Shown here in pieces: positions 19,827 to 50,257 of a DNA stretch of 64,000 nt. Made by a program: the position numbers and the translations under genes. Source of the DNA: a virus. The first letter of the stretch is position 1; each line of letters opens with the position of its first letter. The notes beneath the pieces are model-generated. The model saw nothing but the letters and a program-made list of their open reading frames with translations, had not been told where the DNA came from and did not search any database. The DNA lies in UHGV virus genome UHGV-0076293, one strand, 5' to 3'.

Positions 19827-22544
19827 TTAGAGAGTTTCATCGGTGTTGTCATCTGCACCGGTATCCGTCTCGTCTGTGCCTTCAGTTGAAACGTCTTCTT
19901 CCGTTGTCGTATCGGTTTCCGTCGTTTCGTCATCAGTCATGTCCAAGTCTTCATCACCGCCCAGATCGTCACCACCTAAGTCCTCATCGCCTCCTAAGCC
20001 GCCGTCGTCTTCAGAGCCGCCACCGAAGTCGCTACCCCCGCCGAAGTTATTGGCGTCCTCAGGATTCAGATCAGCTGCTTTTGCCAATGTTTCGACTTTC
20101 CCTGTTACACGTTTTGCTAACTGAATCAATGTCTTAGACGCAGAAGCAATTTCGTCAGAGATCATCTTCACATTTTCACCGCGTTTCTCTTCATCGTAAA
20201 TCAGGTCGAACATATCGTTCTCAATGCCCTGATTACGTAGCCAGTGGCGCGCGTAGAAGGTCTTAACCATCGTCTTGAGGTCATCAGGCGACATTTCAAT
20301 ACCTTCGTTCTGAAGCATATTAGCAATGTCATCCGTGACCACCAGATCTGCAAGTTTCTCGATAAATTCATAGCGTTTATCGAAGAGATCAGCTTGAGAT
20401 GCTGTTGCAGAAGTATCAGGCGGTGGCAAGGTGACCTTCATACCGTTGATAAACTTCGCCATATACTCTGACGTTTGTTTTGTCATCTCTTCGCTAGATA
20501 CATTCGGATTCTGCTCACGGATATACTCAACGATAATACGGATGAGTTCTGCTTGCAGTTTCGGTGAAGCTTGCAGACTGTTTGTAACGTAGCGCGTAAG
20601 CGGGGTTGAGAGGATTTCCTGTTTCTTCACAATCTGTTGAGTAACCAACAGCGATTTAGAATAAATCTGAGAAGCAAACTCCAGGTTCTCCGGGGTAAGT
20701 ACAAGGTCAGGATCAACACACGCGATGTGACACGTACGGCGTAACAGGTTCTCGTCAATTTGTTGATCAGGAACTTTATACTCCGGCGTGGTATCAGACA
20801 CAGACACTTTGTGGCTGGCGTAGTAATCGTTACCCGTTACGTTAAAGGCAATCCCCGCGTTAGCTCCCATTGCCCAAGCATCGTTAATATCCCCCCACAT
20901 CGGTAAACGACGGTTGTAGGAGTTAAGGATATCCGATTTGGTTTGGTCGACAGTTTTTTGACCGTTTGCATCATCTGGTGATAGCTCAATGTCGTACTGC
21001 ATGTGACGTGCCGAGTTCAGTACAGATGAGTTCATTGTCGCAAACAACAGCGCCATCCTGACGGTGGAGATGATAAAGGAGCGTTCAGTGATAGAAACCC
21101 CGATACCGTCTTCGTTAAAATCCGTTGCAAAATAGCATAGGTTATTAACCGGAATGTAAACCACCTGAGTATGACGTTTTGCGAGATGACGCGCTAACAG
21201 AATACGACCGAATGTTTCGGTAATATTCATGCTGATTTCTGCGCCACCTAGTGCCTGACTTAATGCGCGGGCAAATTCGTTTTCAGCGATTTCACCGCAA
21301 CGTGTACTTAAACGGTTGGCGATTTCCGGGGTAATGCGAGAAGTGTTCCCTAGGCCCAGATTAGAACGGTTAATGATGCTGTCCGTCATCCCGTCGTTAT
21401 TCAGGTAGTTCATAAAGTTCGCATCGCCGTACAGCGAGGAGCGAGCATTGATGAAGTTACCCATGTCATCTACGATGGTCAGATAACCGATAGGGTTACG
21501 AACGTCATCGCCAATTACCAGTGGCAGCGTTGACTCTGCGGGCAGTAAACGTTCGATGTATTCGATTTTGTTATTCTCATCCATTGAGATAATAGGAATA
21601 TCACCGTACGTTTGTGTTTTCGGTGTTGACTTATACGCCTCGTTTAAATCACCCAAGTTAATGAACCCTTTTTCAGCGGCGTCACGCTGACGGTCATCGA
21701 AAGATTGGTTAGGGTCGAACGGACTGCCACCGTTTGGTGTAGACGGCTTTTCATATGCGGCTTGCTCTAATTGCCCGTACAATCCCGTACGTGCGTTCTC
21801 ATGCGCAATACGACGATACAAATCTGGCAGCATGGTAATGCGCGGGTTATCGGTAATCGTGATTTCCATCTGGAATTTATCCGAGAACATCGAATCGTGC
21901 TTACCGAAATCGATTTTCAACGTCTGAGGACCAGTAACGGCTCCGTGTAAACGGTTGAGAATTGATTCCACACCAACTCGCTGCCCTTCTTTCGGCGCAT
22001 TAATAGGCCCGAGAATACCAAGCTGTTGTTCGAAGAACGCCGTTTGGGAACGACGAACAGATTCAGTAGCGACCTTTGTATTCAGACCGAATAATTGGTC
22101 GAAGCCGGTATCCGAGATTATCATCACTGGACTTGCGCCTTTGGTTTTTAACGCATCGTAAATCCACTGATATAATTTCTTAGGTAGCTGACGAATGTTA
22201 TCGTGATAATCACGGGTCGGTGTCAGTAGTGCGTTACGCAGATCGATGGGGATGTCCGCGATGTTGTCGTAAATCAACGTCGTGTTGATTAAGTCTTTTG
22301 TTGATAGCAGGCTCGAAGTTGCAATAGTAACGATTGTTTCGAGTTCAGGTAACGCATCAAAGATACGTTCCGCATTTTTGATAGTACGAATACGTGAACT
22401 CGCAATTGCCGTGAGTTCTTGACGTGTTGGCGTAGAACCACCCTCGCTACGCGTACCGCGTTGTTGCTGAGGTGCTGGGCCCGTAGTTTTACGAAGAATT
22501 GCAGCTACGGCGGGGTCGCCCGTTAATTTACTAATATCGTCCAT
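19827..22544 (-). CDS. large protein (905 aa) with acidic Gly-rich C-terminal tail; possible head/portal-class protein
   Basis: long minus-strand ORF; C-terminal ~80 aa are FGGGSD/DLGGDED repeats plus a D/E/T-rich tail; functional class not verifiable from sequence. Confidence 0.7.
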   Translation of the reverse strand: MDDISKLTGDPAVAAILRKTTGPAPQQQRGTRSEGGSTPTRQELTAIASSRIRTIKNAERIFDALPELETIVTIATSSLLSTKDLINTTLIYDNIADIPIDLRNALLTPTRDYHDNIRQLPKKLYQWIYDALKTKGASPVMIISDTGFDQLFGLNTKVATESVRRSQTAFFEQQLGILGPINAPKEGQRVGVESILNRLHGAVTGPQTLKIDFGKHDSMFSDKFQMEITITDNPRITMLPDLYRRIAHENARTGLYGQLEQAAYEKPSTPNGGSPFDPNQSFDDRQRDAAEKGFINLGDLNEAYKSTPKTQTYGDIPIISMDENNKIEYIERLLPAESTLPLVIGDDVRNPIGYLTIVDDMGNFINARSSLYGDANFMNYLNNDGMTDSIINRSNLGLGNTSRITPEIANRLSTRCGEIAENEFARALSQALGGAEISMNITETFGRILLARHLAKRHTQVVYIPVNNLCYFATDFNEDGIGVSITERSFIISTVRMALLFATMNSSVLNSARHMQYDIELSPDDANGQKTVDQTKSDILNSYNRRLPMWGDINDAWAMGANAGIAFNVTGNDYYASHKVSVSDTTPEYKVPDQQIDENLLRRTCHIACVDPDLVLTPENLEFASQIYSKSLLVTQQIVKKQEILSTPLTRYVTNSLQASPKLQAELIRIIVEYIREQNPNVSSEEMTKQTSEYMAKFINGMKVTLPPPDTSATASQADLFDKRYEFIEKLADLVVTDDIANMLQNEGIEMSPDDLKTMVKTFYARHWLRNQGIENDMFDLIYDEEKRGENVKMISDEIASASKTLIQLAKRVTGKVETLAKAADLNPEDANNFGGGSDFGGGSEDDGGLGGDEDLGGDDLGGDEDLDMTDDETTETDTTTEEDVSTEGTDETDTGADDNTDETL

Positions 22545-22555
22545 TGGGGTCTCCG

Positions 22556-24739
22556 ATGCAGAGATTTAACATATTTCGTGAACAGAACATCGCGTTGGCG
22601 AAATCACTGATTATTAAATCAGAATCAATCGCACAACAGATGAATCTGGCAATAACCGAGAACGGCGGTTTCGTTTCCGATAACCGAAGTACGTGGCGAT
22701 ACTACCTGCATTTAGCAGGACAACGTCACGAATGGGATAAGCCCATTTACATAACGTCGCTCGACACGCAAGAGCAGATAGAATTAACGACAGCCAACCT
22801 GTCCCGTCATAAAAAGACCTCAAACGTATTTCGTTCGAACGGCGAGTACATTGAGGAGCTGATCAGAACGTATCCTGACTACGCGATTTATATCCGAGGT
22901 GTGTTTAATCCGGTGGATATAAACTACGCCATCCGTGTGGCTGATTGTTCTATTCTCTATTACGACAGTTCATTAGTGGAGTCGCAAGAGACGTCACTGA
23001 TGTCGAGATTGGAAGACAGAATAAGGGCAGCTCACGTTCGCTATATGTCAGAAGGGTGGAAAGTTCACAACGATGCGTTCGTGTTAGCATTCTACTGTAT
23101 TCTGTATCCGCAGCTACCCGGCATTATCGGCTATATCCGTTCTTCTTTACAGCATACCACGGAAACACACTCGTTTTACGTGACAGAGTTCTTAGCATCG
23201 CACCAAGAACTTCACGAGTTTATGCCGTATCTGACCCAGAAACAGAAATTCATTCTTTATCGGAACATTCGTTACTGGGAACGTAACTCAGGGAAAGAGG
23301 AGATTTTCGACTGGCAGATTGATGCTTTGCTGACAGGTTGGGGGATGCCTGCGGTTGGGTATAATGTTGCACAACAGATACACGAACCGAAGGATGATGA
23401 CGACTCCACGTTAACACCGTTACCGATTGGTTATCAGCAATCGCTTAACTATACGGAAAAGGATTCTGGTCGAGACCTTGACATTGTAACGACGACGGAC
23501 ATTATCCAGAAGGAAGTCGCGTTAGCGTACAATAACCCGGCGTACGAACCGGAGTATCAGGAAGACTTAGATACCCGTTTAAGTTTAACGCAATACCCTA
23601 ACCTGAAAACCAAACTCATTGAAGTTACAGCAGTCGACCCAGAAGCGATTGAGCGCTTCGAGTATCTGCATAACCTCTTTAACGAATGGGTACATCTCGT
23701 CGCGAAAGGGAAATACAACATTTACCACGAGATTCTTAACCCAACAAACGGGGATACCCTAAAGCTTAGCTCAAAAGAGTTACTGGCGCTGTTCTTGTAC
23801 GCGGCGTATAAAGGGTATTCTGACGTTGCGTTAGAAGAGATTCCTGTGTTCAACGTGTTCGGGGTGTTAATCAAACGCTGGGTTTCGTTCGATGAAATGG
23901 AACAACATTTAATTCCGAGTTGGGAAAACCGTTTCGATGCGTTGATTAACTATTATACCGATACACACACAGAAGTCGTCGGAACGATTCTTAGTGCTGA
24001 TGAACTTTACGACACGGTTAATGAAATCATTACCCAGAAACGTCGTCGTTGGCGTTATAGTCAAAACCGACGTAAGATTCCTGACCGTGCAGCGGGCTTG
24101 ATGCTGTTTAACTACCATTACCGTGATTATCGTTGCGATTTAAAACTGAACTATCGTAATTACGATGAGTTCTTTAAAACGTTTGGGTTAGATTATACGT
24201 TGGTTTCGGCGGAGACGTGGCAAGATATTGCTATTGACGCATTTAACACCGCAACTAACCTGGAAACCCGCGCAACGATTTCACAGTCTGAGATTCAGCG
24301 TGCGATGGTACGTCTGATGACGAAGTTGTCATCCTACACCGTACATTTTGCTGCACGAATGGGGTCAGATTCTTACGACGTTATGGACCCGCTCTGTCCT
24401 ATCTTAGGGGATATCCCTATGAGTGGGGAGGGGTCGGTTACCATTATTGAACCCCTCTTAGGCGTACAGCAAGTTACGCGTCACCAGTATATATCCACCG
24501 ACACTGTGTTACCGGCAGCGCCTGTTATTAAAGAACTGTCGATGCCGCAGCACATCAAACTCAGGATGAACATTTACATGGGCATCCGAGTGAAAGTAAC
24601 ACAGCAGGTTGTGGTGGATATTAACGAGCCGACTACCGGGGTTGTTAAAGTGAAATCTTCGCTTGACGATTGGACGTTAAACGAACAGGTGAAAATTAAC
24701 GATCTTGACGGCTTCACGCTTGACCAGCTACCTAAGTGA
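22556..24739 (+). CDS. hypothetical protein (about 727 aa)
   Basis: ORF track starts at a TTG at 22544; the first ATG is at 22556; start lies 12 nt from the divergent minus-strand gene start. Confidence 0.7.
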   Translation: MQRFNIFREQNIALAKSLIIKSESIAQQMNLAITENGGFVSDNRSTWRYYLHLAGQRHEWDKPIYITSLDTQEQIELTTANLSRHKKTSNVFRSNGEYIEELIRTYPDYAIYIRGVFNPVDINYAIRVADCSILYYDSSLVESQETSLMSRLEDRIRAAHVRYMSEGWKVHNDAFVLAFYCILYPQLPGIIGYIRSSLQHTTETHSFYVTEFLASHQELHEFMPYLTQKQKFILYRNIRYWERNSGKEEIFDWQIDALLTGWGMPAVGYNVAQQIHEPKDDDDSTLTPLPIGYQQSLNYTEKDSGRDLDIVTTTDIIQKEVALAYNNPAYEPEYQEDLDTRLSLTQYPNLKTKLIEVTAVDPEAIERFEYLHNLFNEWVHLVAKGKYNIYHEILNPTNGDTLKLSSKELLALFLYAAYKGYSDVALEEIPVFNVFGVLIKRWVSFDEMEQHLIPSWENRFDALINYYTDTHTEVVGTILSADELYDTVNEIITQKRRRWRYSQNRRKIPDRAAGLMLFNYHYRDYRCDLKLNYRNYDEFFKTFGLDYTLVSAETWQDIAIDAFNTATNLETRATISQSEIQRAMVRLMTKLSSYTVHFAARMGSDSYDVMDPLCPILGDIPMSGEGSVTIIEPLLGVQQVTRHQYISTDTVLPAAPVIKELSMPQHIKLRMNIYMGIRVKVTQQVVVDINEPTTGVVKVKSSLDDWTLNEQVKINDLDGFTLDQLPK

Positions 24740-24746
24740 GAAAACC

Positions 24747-25274
24747 ATGGCATATCGCGTCGACTTAACGAAAACTCCGAAACAAATTCTGGTAGATCGT
24801 ATTAACTACGTTTTCGGGGTATCCTATACCACTGACAACATCGATTTTAACGATAAAGGTGTGCAACCACTGACAAAAGATGAAGCCCGTCGTTACGGAC
24901 TGGAATCGAAAGTGGCTGCTGACTTTAAAAACGGTGTTGCAGGGAACCAGGAATTTATCTTAACCCGTGTTGACCTGGCAACGTTCTTAGCTGACGAACC
25001 GGTTACGGTACCGAAAGGCGAAGTAACCAGCAGCCAAGAACTGGCAGACTATATCGTTGCTCAGACCGGTATTGATTTGACTGAAGACGACATTATGATC
25101 GAGCCTATCAGTGAGGAACTCGATTCTTATGATGTTCGCTTAGTCCCGAATCACTTATCTTTTAAAGGAACGATTCCGGTCGTATTTACTGACCCCACAC
25201 CACGTACGTTGGCGTCTCTCGTGACGAAACTTGCGCTGGACGGGTTCCGCCCTGGAGAATTAATCAATGTCTAA
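24747..25274 (+). CDS. hypothetical protein (175 aa)
   Basis: first ATG of the ORF, 8 nt after the upstream stop. Confidence 0.65.
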   Translation: MAYRVDLTKTPKQILVDRINYVFGVSYTTDNIDFNDKGVQPLTKDEARRYGLESKVAADFKNGVAGNQEFILTRVDLATFLADEPVTVPKGEVTSSQELADYIVAQTGIDLTEDDIMIEPISEELDSYDVRLVPNHLSFKGTIPVVFTDPTPRTLASLVTKLALDGFRPGELINV

Positions 25275-26154
25275 TGTCAAAGTTTACGACGGTAAACTCT
25301 CGACGGTAACACTTAATGCGATGCGTCTGGCTACCGCATTAATTACCGGTGCCGATGTGCAATACCCACAGAAGTCCACACTGAATGAGTTTTATAAGCT
25401 CATGCAAACTCCAGTGCCGGACGGTAAAGCACGTCCCCATTTGCAGTACATGGCGATTGGTAACCGTGGCCACATGGTCGACACATCAGATGTTGTTGCT
25501 GATGTTGTTCCTGTAGCTAAAGAACCTATCGCGTCCGGGATGTTTTCACGCGTTCCGTTTGTCCTGCGTACTAAAGACAACGATTTGTCTGATGAACAGC
25601 GTAAGAACTACGCTTTCCGTACTCTGGAAACCATCAACAAACGTGAGTATTGGGCGTACTATTTAAAACGCATTGACATGCGTGCAGTAAAAACTACCGA
25701 CTACGACATTAAGCGTGAGAACGGTGTTGAAACTGTAGAAGACTTTGTTTATACGGATACTGAACTGAACCCGGTACCGAAAGTGTTGCCGGACTACGAT
25801 TACGACGATGACGGTACCGTTGCAATTCCTGATGGCCGTTATGTGGAATCAGGCGCAGACCTGGTTATTCCGTGGACGGACTTTGACGTTCAGGAGTACA
25901 TGAACGTGACCAGCATTATGCGCGGTAGCCCTCGTAGTTCGATTATCTCTGAACTGGCACTGTGCTCTGGTTTAGACCAGGTAACGTCCGGTGACTCTGC
26001 CACAGGTTCGAAGTTCAGCTACACTGAAGCTATCGGTGTACAAGCCCTGTATTACATTTCGATGTTTACTAACCTGGCGCAGACGAACGATAAGCTGTCA
26101 CTGACAATCCGTATCGGTCAACCTGCACCGTTCTTCTTAGGGACAGCGAATTAA
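25267..26154 (+). CDS. hypothetical protein (295 aa)
   Basis: overlaps upstream stop; TAATG overlap with the downstream gene. Confidence 0.7.
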   Translation: MSNVKVYDGKLSTVTLNAMRLATALITGADVQYPQKSTLNEFYKLMQTPVPDGKARPHLQYMAIGNRGHMVDTSDVVADVVPVAKEPIASGMFSRVPFVLRTKDNDLSDEQRKNYAFRTLETINKREYWAYYLKRIDMRAVKTTDYDIKRENGVETVEDFVYTDTELNPVPKVLPDYDYDDDGTVAIPDGRYVESGADLVIPWTDFDVQEYMNVTSIMRGSPRSSIISELALCSGLDQVTSGDSATGSKFSYTEAIGVQALYYISMFTNLAQTNDKLSLTIRIGQPAPFFLGTAN

Positions 26155-26798
26155 TGTTGATTCCTGAGCCGAGACTTCCCGATAAGATGGTCAGGATCGC
26201 GGCGATAGACCCCGGTACGAGCCATCTCGGGATGGCGGTGCTGGATTGGGAATATGGCAGCGACCAAGCCGAAGTGGTGTGGGCTGATACCATGCACGTA
26301 TTAGACCCAACACATCCAAGTGCGTTTGCAGAGTGTGTCGGTAAACGCGACGATCGCTTAGTAAAACTCGAAGCGTGCTACCGTGAGTTTCTTCGGATTG
26401 CGCGTCCGACGTTTGTTGCAACAGAAACGCCGTTTATGCGGCGGGCAAAACTCTCCGCGTACGAATCTGGCGTAGAGTTACAGCTGATGTTAAGACGAGC
26501 GTTATGGGACGTGTTTCCAGAGAAGGTGCTACACGGGTTCAATCCGATTATTGTAAAATCATTCGTTGGTGTGGAAGCGAAAGGAACGGACAAAACAGAT
26601 ATGTTTCGTGCCGTAACGAAGTTGTATCGCGACCACGCGTTGTTTGACATTACAACGTTGGATGAGCACAGTATCGATGCCGTGGCGGTGGGGAATATCT
26701 TTGTCAGGGTAAACCTGTTAAACTTGAATAGTCTCCTACCGCCAAAACAAAAGTCTGCTAAGACAGCAAAACGGCGGAGAAGACGTCGGAGGAAATAG
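26154..26798 (+). CDS. RuvC-like Holliday junction resolvase with poly-Arg tail
   Basis: motifs IAAIDPGTSHLG, ATETPFM and DEHSIDAVAVG align with the RuvC catalytic motifs (GIDPG, AIEQVFM, DAADALAIA); C-terminal KRRRRRRRK. Confidence 0.7.
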   Translation: MLIPEPRLPDKMVRIAAIDPGTSHLGMAVLDWEYGSDQAEVVWADTMHVLDPTHPSAFAECVGKRDDRLVKLEACYREFLRIARPTFVATETPFMRRAKLSAYESGVELQLMLRRALWDVFPEKVLHGFNPIIVKSFVGVEAKGTDKTDMFRAVTKLYRDHALFDITTLDEHSIDAVAVGNIFVRVNLLNLNSLLPPKQKSAKTAKRRRRRRRK

Positions 26799-26800
26799 CG

Positions 26801-27379
26801 ATGTCGCAACCAACACAAGACGTGTCAGCAGCAATTCTTGACATTCTTATCCAAGCAGGGAACAGAAAGTTAAGTAAAGAGCAGTCCGAAGAACTGTCTA
26901 AGATTCTCAAAGACAACTTCGGTGACGAAGTCTCTGTAGACGTAACACGGTCGGGTACAAAGATTCTGTCGGAGTTACGTCCAACGCTTCTTGAGAACCT
27001 TGGAAAGATGGCGGAAAACTTTCAGCAGCAAGCCACAAATGCTGTAGAGAGTTTAGGTGACGAAGTAAGCAAAGAAACGATGTTGACACTGTGGCCGAAA
27101 CTTGCTGGCGCACAGAAGTTCATTATTGTTCTGCTTGCATTCGCCACTGTTGTCGTGACAGGCTTCTTAGCGTACGACACTCATCAGAACTTTCCAAAAG
27201 ACAGCATGGAAGTGTTGTTTGTATCCTTACTTCCGCTGTTCGGATTGGTAGTGTTCGCAACGTGGCCAATTAAAACATTGGCTTACAAGTCGTTGGAGAT
27301 TGCTACCAAAGTTGTCGAGAAGAAACTTGAGAAATCAGGTCAGGTCATCGCGAAGACAGAAACAAAGACAACGAAATAA
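26801..27379 (+). CDS. membrane protein, two predicted TM helices
   Basis: hydrophobic segments FIIVLLAFATVVVTGFLAY and VLFVSLLPLFGLVVFATWPI. Confidence 0.7.
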   Translation: MSQPTQDVSAAILDILIQAGNRKLSKEQSEELSKILKDNFGDEVSVDVTRSGTKILSELRPTLLENLGKMAENFQQQATNAVESLGDEVSKETMLTLWPKLAGAQKFIIVLLAFATVVVTGFLAYDTHQNFPKDSMEVLFVSLLPLFGLVVFATWPIKTLAYKSLEIATKVVEKKLEKSGQVIAKTETKTTK

Positions 27380-45940: not shown

Positions 45941-48900
45941 ATGGCTAAAGCGGTAAAGAAAATTCGTTTACACGATTTACGTCCATACACCGGTGATATC
46001 GGTGAAGGCGTTTTACTTTTCTCCAAGGATGAGAAAGATTATAAGTTACCAGTCCGTGAGGTTATTGCAGATATTGACACCGTACGTAATGCGGTGGCTG
46101 ATGCACAAACAGCAGCAGCACAATCACAAGAAGCTGCAACTCAGGCTACGCAAGCAAAAGTTTTAGCAGAAGCAGCAAAACAACAAACTGACACAGTTGC
46201 GGCAACGGTTGCACAACAAGCGCAAACCGTAACCGAAAAAGCAACAGAAGTCAGTACAAAACACACCGAAGTGTTAGCCGCGAAAACGGCGGTAGACGCT
46301 CAGGCTGTGTCCATTAATGAGAAAGCACAAGCGGTAGCGACAAGTGAGGCAAACGTCACACAAGCAGAAACTACCGTTACGAAGAAAGCAGAAACTGTTG
46401 CCACACAAGCCGGGCGGGTCGAACAGTCACTTACGGCAGTTAACGAAGCTGTTGCGTCGGTAGAGTCGTCGAAAGCTGCCGTAGAAGCTAAAGCAACACA
46501 AGTTACTTCAGACAAAGAAACCGCAGAGAATGCGGCAACTCGTTCTGAGGCAGCCGCTAAGCGTGCGGAAGAAATCGTTGCTCAAGGTACTGTTGATGCA
46601 ACAACGACCAGTAAAGGTGTCGTTAAACTTAATAATACCTTAACCAGTGACTCTGTTACTGAAGCGGCTACACCGTCAACGGTTAAGCAGTTAAATGATG
46701 AATTGCAGTTAAAAGCAAACCGTCACAACCCAACTTTTACCGGTGTGGTAAAAGCACCGACTCCTGCTTCGGATTCTAACGACACGAGCGTCTCAACGAC
46801 TGCATGGGTACGGCAAGCGATTGCTGAATTAGTGGACTCTTCACCCGAGACGTTAGATACGTTATCAGAAATTGCAGCCGCGTTAGGAAACGATCCTAAC
46901 TTTGCGACAACGATAACGAACCAACTAGCGGGTAAACAGCCGTTAAGTCCGTTACTGACAGCGATTGCCGCAGTCACCACCGCTGCAAACAAACTCCCTT
47001 ACTTTACCGGTAGTAATCAGGTAGGGTTAGCGGATTTCACCTCGACTGCTCGCGAATTATTAGCGAAAGGGTCGACGGCCGATATCATCAGCTTCCTGGG
47101 GTTGAAAACCACCGTTGATAAAGCTGCGGGCGCTATGCAACGTAGTTCTAACGGTGCCGATATTCCCGATAAAGCCACCTTCGCGAAGAACATCGGGTTG
47201 TCAGCAGAGACGTACCTGAAGTTTAATGGGGAGATGCCAGTAGATGCAGACATCAACACCTTCGGCCCGGTTGAAGCGTTTATGGGCGTTTGGTCTAAAG
47301 CCACGTCTACGAACGCAACAGTTGCAAAGAATTTTCCAGAAGAAAACGCAGTTGGTTGTTTAGAAGTTTTCAAAGCGGGTAACTACAGCGGAAGTCAACG
47401 TTTTACTGTACGTAACGGTAACATCTATACACGTCATCTTACTGCTGCATGGAATGGGACAAACGGTCCTTGGTCAGAATGGCGTAATGTTGCTGGTTCC
47501 GCCAGAACGTTGAACGAACAAAATAATCTGAATGACTTGGGTGGTGAGGCCGCACTAGGTGTTTGGAGAAACAGTTCGAGTACATTAGCAACAACCGCGC
47601 TGAATTATCCTGAAGAAGGCTCTTTTGCCCAGGGCGTATTAGAAGTTCTCAAAGGTGGCAACTATAGTTACACACAACGCTACACTACCCGCAGAGGCAA
47701 TGTATACGTTCGTTGTCTACAAGCCACGTGGGACGCTTCAAACCCGCAATGGGAAGAATGGCGCTGTGTTGGTCATCAATCTGTCAGCACATATTTCGAA
47801 GGCGATCTCGACACGTTAACTTCGCCTAACCGTTATAGCATTACTGATAAAGCGACAAACGTTCCTTTAATCGACGGTACTAAAATTATCGGTATCTTGG
47901 ACGTCAGTCGTCGTTTTGATAACATTAGTGTCGAACAAAAATTCACCTCGTTTGGTTCTGGGAGCAAAACTACAGGGCGTATTTTCACACGTGTATTCTC
48001 CGGTCAATCAAACGGTAAATGGAGTGAGTGGCGAGAGGTTTTCACCTCGTATTCACTTCCGTTAGTTTTAGGTATCGGTGGGGTTGCAGCTAAGGTTGAC
48101 CCGTTAGACTGGCAAACCTACGACTTCGTTCCTGGACAGATGTTAACGACGCCGTTGAACACCATGAAAAACATTCCTGCAGGAATGGATTGGGGTACTA
48201 TTGACGGTAACTTAGTTAACATCCTTGTAGGGCCGTCTGACGACACCGGTACTGGTCGGAGTATGCTGGTTTGGCGTAGCACAGTGTCTGTTGCTAACTA
48301 TCGCTTCTTTGCGGTACGTATCGCTGGTGAGAAGGGTAGTCGTACGATTACGCCGCGTCAGATGCCTGTGTTGAACGCAGCGCACACCTGGGCAGAGAAA
48401 CAAACGTTCTCTAAAGGTTTAGCGGGTGAATTAACCGGTAATGCTTCTTCAGCAACGAAACTTCAAACAGCCCGTTTAATCGGCGGCGTAAGTTTCGACG
48501 GCACCAAGGACATTGCACTCCCTGGCGTTAACGCACAAGGTACGCAGAACACCACTGGGAATGCGGCTACCGCAACCAAATTACAAACGGCTAGAAATAT
48601 CAACGGTGTGAAATTCGATGGCTCTGGAGACATCAATATCAACACCTTAGTAGGTCGTGGACGTGTCACTGCTCTGGCTGGATCAAACAAAGGTACACCT
48701 GGTATCCAGATGTACGAGGTTTACAATAACGGTTATCCGACCGCGTATGGTAATTTACTGCATTTAGGTGGTGCTACTGCCGTAGGTGAAGGTGAACTAC
48801 TGATCGGTTGGTCTGGTACCAGTGGCGCACACGCACCTGTTTATATCCGTAGTCGTCGAGACACTACAGATGCGCCGTGGTCAGAATGGGCGCAAGTTTA

Positions 48901-50257
48901 TACTGCACGAGACAGCATTCCGGGTGTCAACACCACAGGTAATCAGGATACGACCGGAAACGCAGCTACCGCTACAAAACTTAAAACCACACGTAAAATA
49001 GGCGGGGTTAATTTTGACGGAACGGGTGATATTAACCTACCAGGTGTAAACCAGCAGGGCAACCAGAACACAACAGGTAACGCTGCGACAGCGACTAAAC
49101 TCCAGACTGCCCGAAATATTGGTGGTGTGGCTTTCGATGGTACTAAAGACATCAGTTTACCTGGGGTAAACCAAACAGGGAATCAGTCAACTACGGGGAA
49201 CGCTGCTACTGCAACGAAGTTGCAGACAGCAAGAAGTATCAACAACGTACCATTCGATGGTTCGAAAGATATTACTCTAACGCCAAGTAATATCGGTGCG
49301 GCTGCCTCCTCAATGACTTGGTTAAATACCGGGGATAATGGTGCAGCGCTTAGTACAGATTCTTTTATTACTTTGTTGCAAAATAACGGGGCTTTTAATT
49401 CCAGAACTTGGATAGCCCGATGCTCTTGGGCGTATGCTCAAAATGGCGTGATTCCAGATAGTGAAACAAAGTGCGGTACTATTCCACTTGCAGGCTCAGT
49501 TATTGAAGTTGTAAGTTTTGGGATGACCAACTACACCATTCGTATCACAACCCCTACGACGACATCGGTTAGCGGAGCAAAAACCAACTCTGAGTTTATT
49601 TATTGCTATAATGGTAAAGATTATTCTCCAGGTTGGCGACGGCAGTATAACACTGTTAATAAACCGTCTGCTAGTGACGTTGGCGCTCTACCAACTGGTG
49701 GCGGTACTGTCAGTGGCGATTTGACGGTTAATGGTAAACTGGTTACGAAAAATGCCGATTTTCGAATTGCTTACGGTAGTTACGGTTTCATTTTACGTAA
49801 CGATGGCAATAGCACCTATTTCTTAGTAACAGCATCTGGTCAAGCTGCAACGGGTTCCTGGAACAACTTACGACCGATGTACTTTAGCAATTCTACCGGT
49901 CAAGTAACCTTCGGACACAACATTACCGGTAACGGCAACGGTTCGTTTAACGACGTACAGATTCGTTCTGACCGTCGTAACAAACGTAATCTGGTGAAAC
50001 TGGATAATGCATTAGACCGTTTAGAACTCCTTACCGGGTATCTGTACGAAGTTCAACATCCTGACGATGGATGGAATACTTCGGTAGGCTTAATTGCCCA
50101 GGATGCATTAGTTGCGTTACCTGAATTGGTTACTGAAGACGATGACGCTATTTCTGGTGAAAAACGTTTACGTTTGAACTATAATGGTGTTATTGCGTTG
50201 TTGGTAGAGGGTATTAAAGACCTTCGTCGTGAGCTTAAGGAACTCAAGGGGAAATAA
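45941..50257 (+). CDS. long tail fibre, T5 pb1-like (1438 aa)
   Basis: Ala/Gln/Thr-rich coiled-coil N-terminal region; five tandem GNAATATKLQTARNIGGVxFDGTKDI repeats (phage tail-fibre repeat class); C-terminal peptidase S74-type intramolecular chaperone with SDRRNK Ser-Lys motif. Confidence 0.85.
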   Translation: MAKAVKKIRLHDLRPYTGDIGEGVLLFSKDEKDYKLPVREVIADIDTVRNAVADAQTAAAQSQEAATQATQAKVLAEAAKQQTDTVAATVAQQAQTVTEKATEVSTKHTEVLAAKTAVDAQAVSINEKAQAVATSEANVTQAETTVTKKAETVATQAGRVEQSLTAVNEAVASVESSKAAVEAKATQVTSDKETAENAATRSEAAAKRAEEIVAQGTVDATTTSKGVVKLNNTLTSDSVTEAATPSTVKQLNDELQLKANRHNPTFTGVVKAPTPASDSNDTSVSTTAWVRQAIAELVDSSPETLDTLSEIAAALGNDPNFATTITNQLAGKQPLSPLLTAIAAVTTAANKLPYFTGSNQVGLADFTSTARELLAKGSTADIISFLGLKTTVDKAAGAMQRSSNGADIPDKATFAKNIGLSAETYLKFNGEMPVDADINTFGPVEAFMGVWSKATSTNATVAKNFPEENAVGCLEVFKAGNYSGSQRFTVRNGNIYTRHLTAAWNGTNGPWSEWRNVAGSARTLNEQNNLNDLGGEAALGVWRNSSSTLATTALNYPEEGSFAQGVLEVLKGGNYSYTQRYTTRRGNVYVRCLQATWDASNPQWEEWRCVGHQSVSTYFEGDLDTLTSPNRYSITDKATNVPLIDGTKIIGILDVSRRFDNISVEQKFTSFGSGSKTTGRIFTRVFSGQSNGKWSEWREVFTSYSLPLVLGIGGVAAKVDPLDWQTYDFVPGQMLTTPLNTMKNIPAGMDWGTIDGNLVNILVGPSDDTGTGRSMLVWRSTVSVANYRFFAVRIAGEKGSRTITPRQMPVLNAAHTWAEKQTFSKGLAGELTGNASSATKLQTARLIGGVSFDGTKDIALPGVNAQGTQNTTGNAATATKLQTARNINGVKFDGSGDININTLVGRGRVTALAGSNKGTPGIQMYEVYNNGYPTAYGNLLHLGGATAVGEGELLIGWSGTSGAHAPVYIRSRRDTTDAPWSEWAQVYTARDSIPGVNTTGNQDTTGNAATATKLKTTRKIGGVNFDGTGDINLPGVNQQGNQNTTGNAATATKLQTARNIGGVAFDGTKDISLPGVNQTGNQSTTGNAATATKLQTARSINNVPFDGSKDITLTPSNIGAAASSMTWLNTGDNGAALSTDSFITLLQNNGAFNSRTWIARCSWAYAQNGVIPDSETKCGTIPLAGSVIEVVSFGMTNYTIRITTPTTTSVSGAKTNSEFIYCYNGKDYSPGWRRQYNTVNKPSASDVGALPTGGGTVSGDLTVNGKLVTKNADFRIAYGSYGFILRNDGNSTYFLVTASGQAATGSWNNLRPMYFSNSTGQVTFGHNITGNGNGSFNDVQIRSDRRNKRNLVKLDNALDRLELLTGYLYEVQHPDDGWNTSVGLIAQDALVALPELVTEDDDAISGEKRLRLNYNGVIALLVEGIKDLRRELKELKGK
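48425..49295 (+). repeat. five tandem ~37-aa tail-fibre repeats inside the fibre gene
   Basis: repeated TGNAATATKLQTAR-x-IGGV-x-FDG-x-DI-x-LPGVNQ-x-GNQ units, recoded with synonymous codons between copies. Confidence 0.8.

Follow-up and report, generated by a model that had tools for sequence, protein, structure and literature searches.

The question raised by this locus is whether a gene with RuvC-like catalytic motifs, lying among the virion genes of a giant phage, encodes a Holliday junction resolvase, and what the strongly basic tail of its product could be for. The window, which is the whole 64,000-nucleotide stretch of virus genome UHGV-0076293 analysed here, comes from an SPN3US/Asesino-like jumbo phage of the phiKZ-like lineage. 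The gene occupies positions 26154-26798 of the + strand and encodes 214 amino acids followed by a TAG stop. The initial annotation had read it as a RuvC-fold resolvase from the motifs IDPGT (within AIDPGTS, residues 17-23), ATETPFM (88-94) and HSIDAVAVG (172-180), and all of them were found in the translation. Opposite-strand ORFs also run across the locus (e.g. 26378-26818, 146 aa), and these were dismissed as spurious in view of the hundreds of homologues of the + strand frame. The features of the gene and of its catalytic core are the following:

26154..26798, + strand: RuvC-like Holliday-junction resolvase CDS, predicted orthologue of SPN3US gp85, Asesino gp101, PhiPA3 gp159 and phiKZ gp140
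26187..26717, + strand: RNase H-like RuvC catalytic core, residues 12-188 (AF2 pLDDT mostly >90; Foldseek matches to RuvC structures)
26208..26210, + strand: D19 (GAC), first catalytic carboxylate, in the IDPGT motif, corresponding to RuvC D7 (164/164; aligned to Tth/Dr RuvC 'IDPG')
26424..26426, + strand: E91 (GAA), second catalytic carboxylate, in the ATETPF motif (164/164; aligned to RuvC 'vavEeqFf')
26433-26435, + strand: F94 aromatic wedge, equivalent of EcRuvC F69 (F or Y in 164/164)
26556..26594, + strand: segment with K135 (26556-26558) and K147 (26592-26594) (164/164; aligned to RuvC 'VKQ' and 'aaKee')
26667..26678, + strand: H172-S-I-D175 (CAC...GAT), third and fourth catalytic residues (160/164 and 164/164; aligned to DrRuvC 'nnHaaDA')

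Concerning the family, the protein matches the PHROG_159 profile, 'RuvC-like Holliday junction resolvase', with E=9.1e-39 and 134 bits (residues 1-210 against profile positions 76-287), and phmmer and family profile searches recovered RuvC chains of T. thermophilus and D. radiodurans with E-values from 1.8e-4 to 7e-4. The AF2 model (pLDDT 88.7, pTM 0.85) displays three strands and helices, then two more strands alternating with helices, and ends in a helix that spans residues 171-188. When this model was compared with the PDB by Foldseek, a structural check that the initial annotation had proposed, ranks 1-12 were all bacterial RuvC (E 2.8e-10 to 3.9e-8), with target-normalised TM-scores of 0.69-0.81 for 7w8d, 7xhj, 4ep4, 4ld0, 6s16, 6lw3 and 1hjr. 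The fowlpox and canarypox resolvases, the RuvC of phage bIL67 and MOC1 were ranked below them, and the structures matched in BFVD were phage entries named 'Holliday junction resolvase / RuvC'.

With the E limit raised to 10, Pfam PF02075 still gave no match to the window protein, and only 5/40 close homologues matched it within an E of 0.01 (best 1.8e-7), while the NCBIfam model NF000711 scored 15.7 bits, below its cut-off of 163 bits. Since these scores are sub-threshold, the product is classed as a divergent viral RuvC-like protein and not as a RuvC equivalog. The only Pfam match of the single protein, DUF7943 (E=0.24), is spurious. It should be mentioned that the link of this protein to RuvC came via PHROGs, profile searches and structure, not via Pfam.

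Conservation was counted in an alignment of 164 diverse homologues. Variation of the catalytic acidic residues among RuvC relatives had been named as the observation that would speak against the assignment, and no such variation was seen: D19, E91 and D175 are present in 164/164 homologues and H172 in 160/164. The aromatic wedge, which stands three positions past the catalytic Glu (the equivalent of EcRuvC F69 and Tth F73), is also present in the window protein as F94, a position that aligns with EcRuvC F69 and is occupied by F in 114 homologues and by Y in the other 50. K135 and K147, which are found in 164/164 each, align with EcRuvC K107 and K118. The roles of F69, K107 and K118 are taken, in part, from the EcRuvC mutagenesis literature. 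Those of the wedge aromatic and the conserved lysines in RuvC are described in part in PMC3864405, and His as the third catalytic residue is a known variant of the Deinococcus-Thermus RuvC (PMC3834835). The PHROG_159 match, the RuvC profile matches, the AF2 and Foldseek results, the catalytic residues and F94, K135 and K147 all agree, and the RuvC-fold assignment is upheld.

It could be argued that this is an RNase H-fold nuclease with another job: RNA processing like that of RuvX/YqgF, cutting in the manner of a terminase, or the function of a TnpB/IscB-type RuvC domain of transposons. Foldseek also gives RuvX, the herpesvirus terminase nuclease and IscB/IsrB (E about 1e-4) and one close homologue has a weak Pfam RRXRR match. 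However, the matches to RuvX, terminase and IscB fall short of those to RuvC by 4-6 orders of magnitude and have low TM-scores, the RuvC-specific wedge and both lysines are conserved, and the protein is small, single-domain, single-copy and fixed in genomic position. Such a job is therefore highly improbable.

Regarding its distribution, homologues of the resolvase were found 1148 times in the representative library and in 182 phage records, nearly all of them from jumbo phages. The named members of the family are SPN3US gp85, Asesino gp101, the 'putative RuvC' of Kwan and Wellington, phiKZ gp140, PhiPA3 gp159, EL gp108 and Moabite gp139, where the phiKZ, 201phi2-1 and EL equivalents were taken from notes in the PhiPA3 record. 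Identity among the orthologues goes from 81% (SPN3US) down to 35% (PhiPA3 gp159, E=5e-25 in a one-way comparison), and the virion gene directly upstream is also 35% identical to its PhiPA3 counterpart (E=3e-46). The pair formed by the virion gene and the resolvase gene is syntenic with gp158-gp159 of PhiPA3, which correspond to gp139-gp140 of phiKZ, and SPN3US, Asesino, CR5 and pVp-JHP1101 share this arrangement. Judging from similarity and gene order, this gene is the likely orthologue of SPN3US gp85 and phiKZ gp140. A RuvC-type resolvase is an ordinary gene, present in nearly all phiKZ/SPN3US-like giant phages, and the RuvC of jumbo phages has been described as uncoupled from a RuvB-like ATPase and devoid of a RuvAB partner (Iyer et al. 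2021, PMC7824862).

In the phage records examined, SPN3US gp85, Asesino gp101, CR5_079, phiKZ gp140 and PhiPA3 gp159 appear as 'hypothetical protein' (gp140 through the similarity note of PhiPA3 gp159). The papers on SPN3US (main texts only), the phage-nucleus interactome, the Chimalliviridae core genome and the phiKZ ASO screen contain no mention of gp85, gp84, gp140, RuvC or a resolvase, and a search for literature pairing RuvC with Chimalliviridae returned none. The gene 140 of phiKZ is not among the listed hits of that ASO screen, although it may not have been in the screened set.

The gene overlaps its neighbours through start and stop signals, and its two junctions are the following:

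26152..26156, + strand: TAATG overlap between the stop of the upstream virion-protein gene (25267-26154) and the resolvase ATG (from the sequence)
26788..26803, + strand: Shine-Dalgarno GGAGG (26788-26792) inside the last tail codons, together with the ATG of the downstream gene (26801) (from the sequence)

The TAATG overlap indicates translational coupling of the resolvase to the upstream virion-protein gene. At the other end, GGAGG lies in the final R-R-K codons, 8 nt 5' of the next ATG, and this junction is identical in SPN3US and Asesino. The downstream gene presents no homology to the 'Rz-like spanin' that occupies the equivalent slot in PhiPA3.

The resolvase gene is surrounded by late virion structural genes and adjoins a portal-like gene (19827-22544). 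SPN3US-type heads are reported to carry many proteins packaged along with the DNA, and from this position it could be imagined that the tail loads the nuclease on DNA for co-packaging into the capsid, as a virion or ejected protein, or that it docks on the portal or another acidic partner. Nevertheless, the records of SPN3US, CR5, Asesino and PhiPA3 label the neighbours of the resolvase gene as virion proteins but not the gene itself, and gp85 goes unmentioned in the main texts of the SPN3US virion and prohead proteomics, which counts as weak evidence. A packaged or portal-docked resolvase is accordingly very doubtful.

The reading that we consider probable is a late-expressed, RuvC-family debranching nuclease that uses its tail as a non-specific DNA tether. 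The D-E-H-D site and the homology to RuvC lead one to expect a dimeric enzyme that nicks branched DNA, the dimer being predicted by homology and the cut being made through the metal-binding site. The enzyme would act on Holliday junctions, and probably on forks as well, within the replicating concatemer, which is rich in recombination, and cutting these structures would leave unbranched duplex fit for packaging with no need for RuvAB. The equivalent debranching role is played by endonuclease VII in T4 and by endonuclease I in T7. Action at the packaging stage would be consistent with the coupling to, and the location within, the late virion genes.

The extension that follows the last helix comprises two parts:

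26718..26747, + strand: hydrophobic linker LLNLNSLLPP, residues 189-198, from the last helix to the basic tail (kept within the tail-bearing clade)
26748..26795, + strand: disordered polybasic tail KQKSAKTAKRRRRRRRK, residues 198-214 (pLDDT 53-57)

The protein ends in KTAKRRRRRRRK, and the longer terminal stretch reads ...PPKQKSAKTAKRRRRRRRK. The initial annotation had placed the start of a basic extension at about nt 26765; the extension is real, and the segment KTAKR7K (residues 203-214) corresponds to nt 26760-26795, a trivial difference of 5 nt. The extension after the last helix (189-214) carries a net charge of +12 and the core one of -4, so the whole protein reaches +8. The tail is disordered, and its composition is far beyond chance. 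Considering that K+R make up 11.4% of the residues in the long ORFs of the window, at least 11 K/R in 15 terminal residues would have P about 4e-8 per terminus and about 6e-6 across 152 ORF termini, while the whole ORF set would be expected to contain about 2e-5 runs of seven R. A tail of such basicity occurs in only 1/76 ORFs of the window (>=80 aa), where the next highest value is 6/15 K/R, and this rules out a general basic tag for the DNA-acting proteins of this phage. A simple repeat or slippage origin of the arginine run was also ruled out because its codons are mixed (CGG CGG AGA AGA CGT CGG AGG).

The tail had also been called unusual, and this holds in comparison with characterised RuvCs; within the SPN3US-like phages it is a conserved trait of the whole clade. 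A K/R tail of variable sequence is present in 36/36 members of the clade that includes the window, SPN3US, Asesino, CR5 and pVp-JHP1101, and the last 20 residues hold 11-15 K/R in all full-length close homologues. What is conserved in the clade is composition, not sequence, and none of the named relatives has as pure an arginine run as the R7 of the window. Most of the ~128 other homologues stop directly past the last helix, and PhiPA3, LPKP23, Aphrodite1, FLC9, Moabite, EL and RSL2 have no basic tail. The family has apparently gained tails of this sort more than once. On average the tail contributes about +11.5 to the charge of the homologues that bear it, and the cores with a tail are more acidic (mean -4.7 vs -2.5, P=5e-4, a value that is not corrected for phylogeny). 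The tail would be dispensable for the core activity because most family members are without it. A search of the literature on polybasic tails of RuvC-like resolvases found nothing relevant, and the clade-specific tail is a modest undescribed detail.

Part of the tail sequence could serve gene expression, either through the downstream ribosome-binding site or through rare Arg codons that throttle a potentially toxic nuclease, the peptide itself being of minor importance. The GGAGG falls within the final tail codons, at a junction shared with SPN3US and Asesino. Moreover, CGG, AGA and AGG account for 6/7 of the tail Arg codons and 13/21 of those in the whole gene, vs 19% in the other genes of the window (P about 3e-4), and no tRNA genes were found in the window, which would speak for the rare-codon idea. 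However, the ribosome-binding site accounts for at most 2-3 codons of a basic segment of 17-30 residues. In addition, pVp-JHP1101, CR5 and metagenomic relatives have different nucleotides, many Lys codons and other junctions, and yet their tails hold +11 to +15. That the charge is kept despite these differing nucleotides points to selection on the charge of the peptide. The ribosome-binding site is ruled out as the only cause of the tail, since it spans the last 2-3 codons and the relatives differ in nucleotides; those codons are nonetheless also under constraint from the downstream Shine-Dalgarno. A tail that mainly serves expression is an unlikely explanation.

The most likely role of the tail, by analogy, is that of a non-specific electrostatic DNA tether. 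The 17-residue disordered segment on a net-acidic core would hold the enzyme on duplex DNA, raise its DNA affinity and permit a one-dimensional search for junctions. In T7 endonuclease I, a disordered basic N-terminal peptide of 16 aa is needed for stable dsDNA binding and for 1D diffusion to junctions (PMC9547003), and the extra positive surface charge of the bIL67 phage RuvC has been tied to broader branched-DNA binding (PMC3864405).

DNA binding and localisation had both been suggested for the tail at first. As to localisation, the closest isolates are members of the lineage that builds a phage nucleus, and nucleus formation by Asesino is reported from experiment (PMC11724907). The phage DNA lies inside the proteinaceous shell and the resolvase has to get there; the tail resembles a classical or bipartite eukaryotic NLS (KxK, spacer, R-run) and is kept across the whole clade. 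Thus, in the SPN3US/Asesino/CR5-type branch it could be a linear NLS-like element for entry to or retention in the phage nucleus, or for DNA at the capsid-docking site. If so, no terminal signal for localisation to the 'nucleus' of a bacterial virus would have been described before it, and the sporadic tails elsewhere would be convergent gains. Nevertheless, the published import work reports no conserved terminal signal, and import depends on folded surface patches recognised by PicA/Imp1 (PMC11087766; PMC13282480). Furthermore, the DnaB-like helicase and the polymerase of the window, which also act on DNA, have no such tail, and a tail is also lacking from the orthologues of PhiPA3 and the phiKZ group, for which a nucleus is well established, and from that of EL. 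Localisation is disfavoured by the import work and by the tail-less helicase and polymerase, so a nuclear signal is improbable and DNA binding is favoured.

As a resolvase, this gene adds little, since junction nucleases of the RuvC-like type are known to occur almost universally in phiKZ-like jumbo phages and several orthologues already carry that annotation. The results do provide a residue-level case for annotating SPN3US gp85, Asesino gp101, CR5_079, phiKZ gp140 and PhiPA3 gp159, and they document how one clade added a disordered tail of ~+12 to an acidic RuvC core. If the tail is a tether for one-dimensional search, the principle of T7 endonuclease I would reach the RuvC fold, and adding or removing the tail would offer a simple way to engineer how strongly small resolvases bind DNA.

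Regarding known systems, the bacterial RuvCs (T. thermophilus 4ep4/6s16, D. radiodurans 7w8d, E. coli 1hjr) share with the window protein the RNase H-like fold, the D-E-H-D tetrad in its Deinococcus-Thermus version, the wedge and the two lysines. However, identity to them is only 18-23%, the window protein falls under the Pfam and NCBIfam cut-offs, and it adds the conserved N-terminal residues 1-11 (MLIPEPRLPD...), an insertion at ~49-62 and the 26-residue C-terminal linker and tail. The PHROG_159 resolvases of chimalliviruses and other jumbo phages are direct orthologues in a common slot after the phiKZ gp139-type virion gene, and those of SPN3US, Asesino, CR5 and pVp-JHP1101 bear a tail of the same kind. 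The RuvC of bIL67 (4ktw) and the poxvirus A22-type resolvases (6p7b, 5e6f) represent a viral, stand-alone RuvC family without RuvAB, with structural matches at E about 1e-4, and the bIL67 enzyme gained positive surface charge to bind forks besides junctions. In these enzymes, whose identity to the window protein is 10-13%, the extra positive charge is carried by the surface of the folded domain, at the N-terminal end of helix alpha-D and in loops, and not by a disordered C-terminal tail. T7 endonuclease I is likewise a phage junction-resolving enzyme with a short, disordered, basic terminal peptide, but its fold is unrelated, being restriction-endonuclease-like and domain-swapped, its peptide is N-terminal, shorter and less extreme in charge, and its link to the tail described here is one of analogy.

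The resolvase gene and its junctions are described by the features below, and both the coordinates and the three catalytic motifs proposed in the initial annotation were correct when compared with the ORF listing and the raw sequence.

26154..26798, + strand: resolvase coding sequence, 214 codons plus TAG (ORF listing and raw sequence)
Residues 17-23 of the resolvase, + strand: motif AIDPGTS (raw sequence)
Residues 88-94 of the resolvase, + strand: motif ATETPFM (raw sequence)
Residues 172-180 of the resolvase, + strand: motif HSIDAVAVG (raw sequence)
26760-26795, + strand: KTAKR7K stretch of the tail (raw sequence)
26152-26156, + strand: TAATG overlap of the upstream-gene stop with the resolvase ATG (sequence)
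26788-26792, + strand: GGAGG Shine-Dalgarno of the downstream gene, inside the last Arg-Arg-Lys codons of the resolvase

The protein ends in ...LLNLNSLLPPKQKSAKTAKRRRRRRRK, and the downstream gene starts 2 nt past the TAG. This ORF (26801-27379, +) encodes 192 aa of PHROG_8722, of unknown function, with two hydrophobic segments, each some 20 residues long, FIIVLLAFATVVVTGFLAY and VLFVSLLPLFGLVVFATWPI. The matching slot in PhiPA3 holds an "Rz-like spanin", to which direct protein comparison revealed no sequence similarity; the product may sit in the membrane or be linked to lysis.

The assignment as a RuvC-fold resolvase was upheld. PHROG_159 ("RuvC-like Holliday junction resolvase") matched end to end (E=9.1e-39), while the single sequence gave no Pfam family match. 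A phmmer search reached the Thermus thermophilus RuvC at E=0.004, which improved to 1.8e-4 with a 40-sequence family profile that also gained the Deinococcus radiodurans RuvC over residues 14-181. The AlphaFold2 model, built from the 40-sequence family alignment, is confident and RuvC-like (pLDDT 88.7, pTM 0.85), with three strands, helices, two more strands and a long final helix (171-188). In Foldseek against the PDB, ranks 1-12 were all taken by bacterial RuvC chains (E 2.8e-10 to 3.9e-8, TM 0.69-0.81 on target), followed by weaker matches to the fowlpox and canarypox resolvases, the phage bIL67 RuvC and chloroplast MOC1; in BFVD the matches were phage "Holliday junction resolvase / RuvC" models. 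The alternative, another kind of RNase H-fold nuclease, is disfavoured by structural matches weaker by orders of magnitude and by conservation of the residues specific to RuvC. Nevertheless, the score against NF000711, the curated bacterial RuvC model, was below threshold (15.7 bits, cut-off 163) and PF02075 matched just 5 of 40 close relatives; hence, the protein belongs to the RuvC superfamily and to the RuvC-like family of phages, but is no equivalog of the cellular enzyme. The resolvase assignment is already known for this phage group; some orthologues (in SPLA5c, SPFM2, Kwan, Wellington and Moabite) are annotated as RuvC-like Holliday junction resolvases.

Loss of the catalytic acidic residues would argue against this function, and it was not observed: across the family, an alignment of 164 sequences shows no change at D19, E91 or D175, nor at K135 and K147, which align with the lysines of RuvC "VKQ" and "AAKEE". 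H172 is kept in 160 of the 164 sequences, and position 94 is F or Y in all of them, F94 being three residues past the catalytic Glu as F69 is in EcRuvC. A His as third catalytic residue is a documented variant of Deinococcus-Thermus RuvC (PMC3834835), which fits the D. radiodurans and T. thermophilus proteins being the best matches. The alignment and the model show a RuvC-fold nuclease with an intact catalytic site. Its N-terminal extension MLIPEPRLPD (26154-26186, residues 1-11), absent from bacterial RuvC, precedes the first RuvC strand, is conserved in close homologues and is modelled with pLDDT >90.

Concerning the phage itself, the 3-kb neighbourhood of the gene matched a single genome among 50,697 isolate phage records at the nucleotide level, Erwinia phage Asesino (74% over 55%). 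At the protein level, homologues were found in 182 phage records, essentially all of jumbo phages, with identities of 80-82% in SPN3US-type Salmonella phages, 72-78% in Erwinia phages, 65-67% in Cronobacter CR5 and Derbicus, and 24-38% in PhiPA3, PA1C, Noxifer, EL, RSL2, Moabite, vibriophages and others. Elsewhere, window ORFs matched a phiKZ-type major head protein, a DnaB-like helicase and a polymerase, and a 1438-aa tail fibre ORF is present. Public assemblies contain the exact 214-aa protein in 1464 blocks, where it lies on metagenome contigs 211-227 kb long (loci L008-L011). The phage seems to be a jumbo phage of SPN3US/Asesino type that is very widespread but has no close relative among the sequenced isolates of those 50,697 records.

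Some observations were made along the way. A Salmonella Agona assembly holds a 99%-identical resolvase fragment. Salmonella phages SPFM1, 7, 8, 9 and 20 (proteins P0056-P0060) carry garbled "hypothetical proteins" of 180-210 aa that match the resolvase only in short patches, up to nine separate stretches, which look like frameshift or sequencing errors. The tail fibre ORF (45941-50257, +) matches 57 different PHROG tail-fibre families, among them a T4-like long-tail-fibre distal-tip region that aligns at its C-terminus, and appears to encode a mosaic receptor-binding protein. The ORFs called at 22544-24739 (+) and 24705-25274 (+) begin at TTG (731 and 189 aa), whereas on identical metagenome contigs the genes were called with 727 (or 724) and 175 aa; their true starts are probably downstream.

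The resolvase gene keeps a fixed position within the late virion-gene block. Its SPN3US orthologue is SPN3US_0085 (gp85), flanked by genes 81-84, annotated as virion proteins, and a large virion protein in the window occupies the position of gene 81. The pair formed by a phiKZ gp139-type virion protein and the resolvase is syntenic with PhiPA3 (35% identity each, E=3e-46 and 5e-25, respectively), whose record describes gp159 as the equivalent of phiKZ gp140, 201phi2-1 gp225 and EL gp108. This location could suggest that the enzyme is incorporated into the virion. Weak evidence speaks against this: no examined record annotates an orthologue as a virion protein, and the main texts of the SPN3US proteomics papers searched do not mention gp85.

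The highly basic C-terminal extension is real and far beyond chance. Given 11.4% K+R in the long ORFs of the window, at least 11 K/R in 15 terminal residues has P ~4e-8, and an R7 run anywhere has an expectation of ~2e-5. Among 76 ORFs of the window this terminus is unique, the next best having 6/15 K/R. A DNA-repeat origin of the R run was ruled out because its codons are mixed. In the model the last 15-20 residues are disordered (pLDDT 53-57), and the hydrophobic linker LLNLNSLLPP (26718-26747, residues 189-198), which joins them to the last helix, has pLDDT ~80. The linker hardly varies within the SPN3US/Erwinia-phage subgroup, and more distant tail-bearers keep its hydrophobicity; it could be more than a spacer, namely a short motif for docking. 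The tail contributes about +11.5, turning an acidic protein (core net charge -4) into a basic one. Core charge averages -4.7 in tail-bearers versus -2.5 in proteins without a tail (Mann-Whitney P=5e-4, with no correction for phylogeny).

Among close homologues of full length, to as low as ~40% identity, every one carries 11-15 K/R in its last 20 residues, in tails differing in sequence, length and R:K ratio. A search of 1.84 billion representative proteins returned 1148 homologues; among the best 147, 17 have at least seven K/R in the last 15 residues and most others extend only a few residues beyond the final helix. A neighbour-joining tree built from the catalytic core, rough and with unresolved deep branches, places the window in one clade with SPN3US, Asesino, CR5 and Vibrio phage pVp-JHP1101, and all 36 sequences of this clade carry a polybasic tail that is conserved in composition. 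Outside it, tails are absent from PhiPA3, LPKP23, Aphrodite1, FLC9, Moabite, EL and RSL2 and scattered elsewhere (homologues P0077/P0080/P0108, P0121, P0158 and P0203), a pattern that suggests repeated independent gains. No published description of this clade-conserved tail was found in a literature search. What it adds to the known picture is modest but credible: an acidic RuvC core bears a disordered appendage of charge +12, which may have been acquired on more than one occasion.

Could the tail be a by-product of expression? Its final codons double as the downstream Shine-Dalgarno, a junction identical in SPN3US and Asesino. Moreover, CGG/AGA/AGG make up 6 of 7 tail Arg codons (26772-26792) and 13 of 21 in the whole gene (26154-26795), versus 19% in other long window ORFs, where CGT reaches 59%; no tRNA gene was found in the 64-kb window. 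These features may well adjust, perhaps throttle, the output of a nuclease that could be toxic, or the way it is coupled to the next gene. However, this cannot explain the whole segment, because relatives keep a basic segment of 17-30 residues with different nucleotides and many Lys codons.

The initial annotation had offered DNA binding or localisation as roles of the tail, and only the former stands as the best-supported model. A signal of NLS type, for import into the phage nucleus or retention there, is attractive by analogy, and a linear targeting signal, if true, would be the only reading that makes the tail remarkable. It is nonetheless unlikely: published data describe import via folded surface patches recognised by PicA/Imp1, not terminal signals, the window's helicase and polymerase lack such tails, and the orthologues are tail-less in PhiPA3, experimentally nucleus-forming, and in the related phage EL.

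By analogy with RuvC, T4 endonuclease VII and T7 endonuclease I, the resolvase would dimerise and, as in such systems, make replicating, recombining concatemers fit for packaging by resolving their Holliday junctions and other branches. The tail would act as a non-specific electrostatic DNA tether, and a tail-aided search would plausibly be of use in a genome of ~225-240 kb where junctions are rare. Gain of positive charge in the phage bIL67 RuvC widened the range of branched DNA bound (PMC3864405). Among enzymes studied experimentally, T7 endonuclease I offers the nearest parallel: it requires its N-terminal peptide of 16 residues, disordered and mainly basic, to bind duplex DNA stably and to diffuse in one dimension to the junction (PMC9547003).
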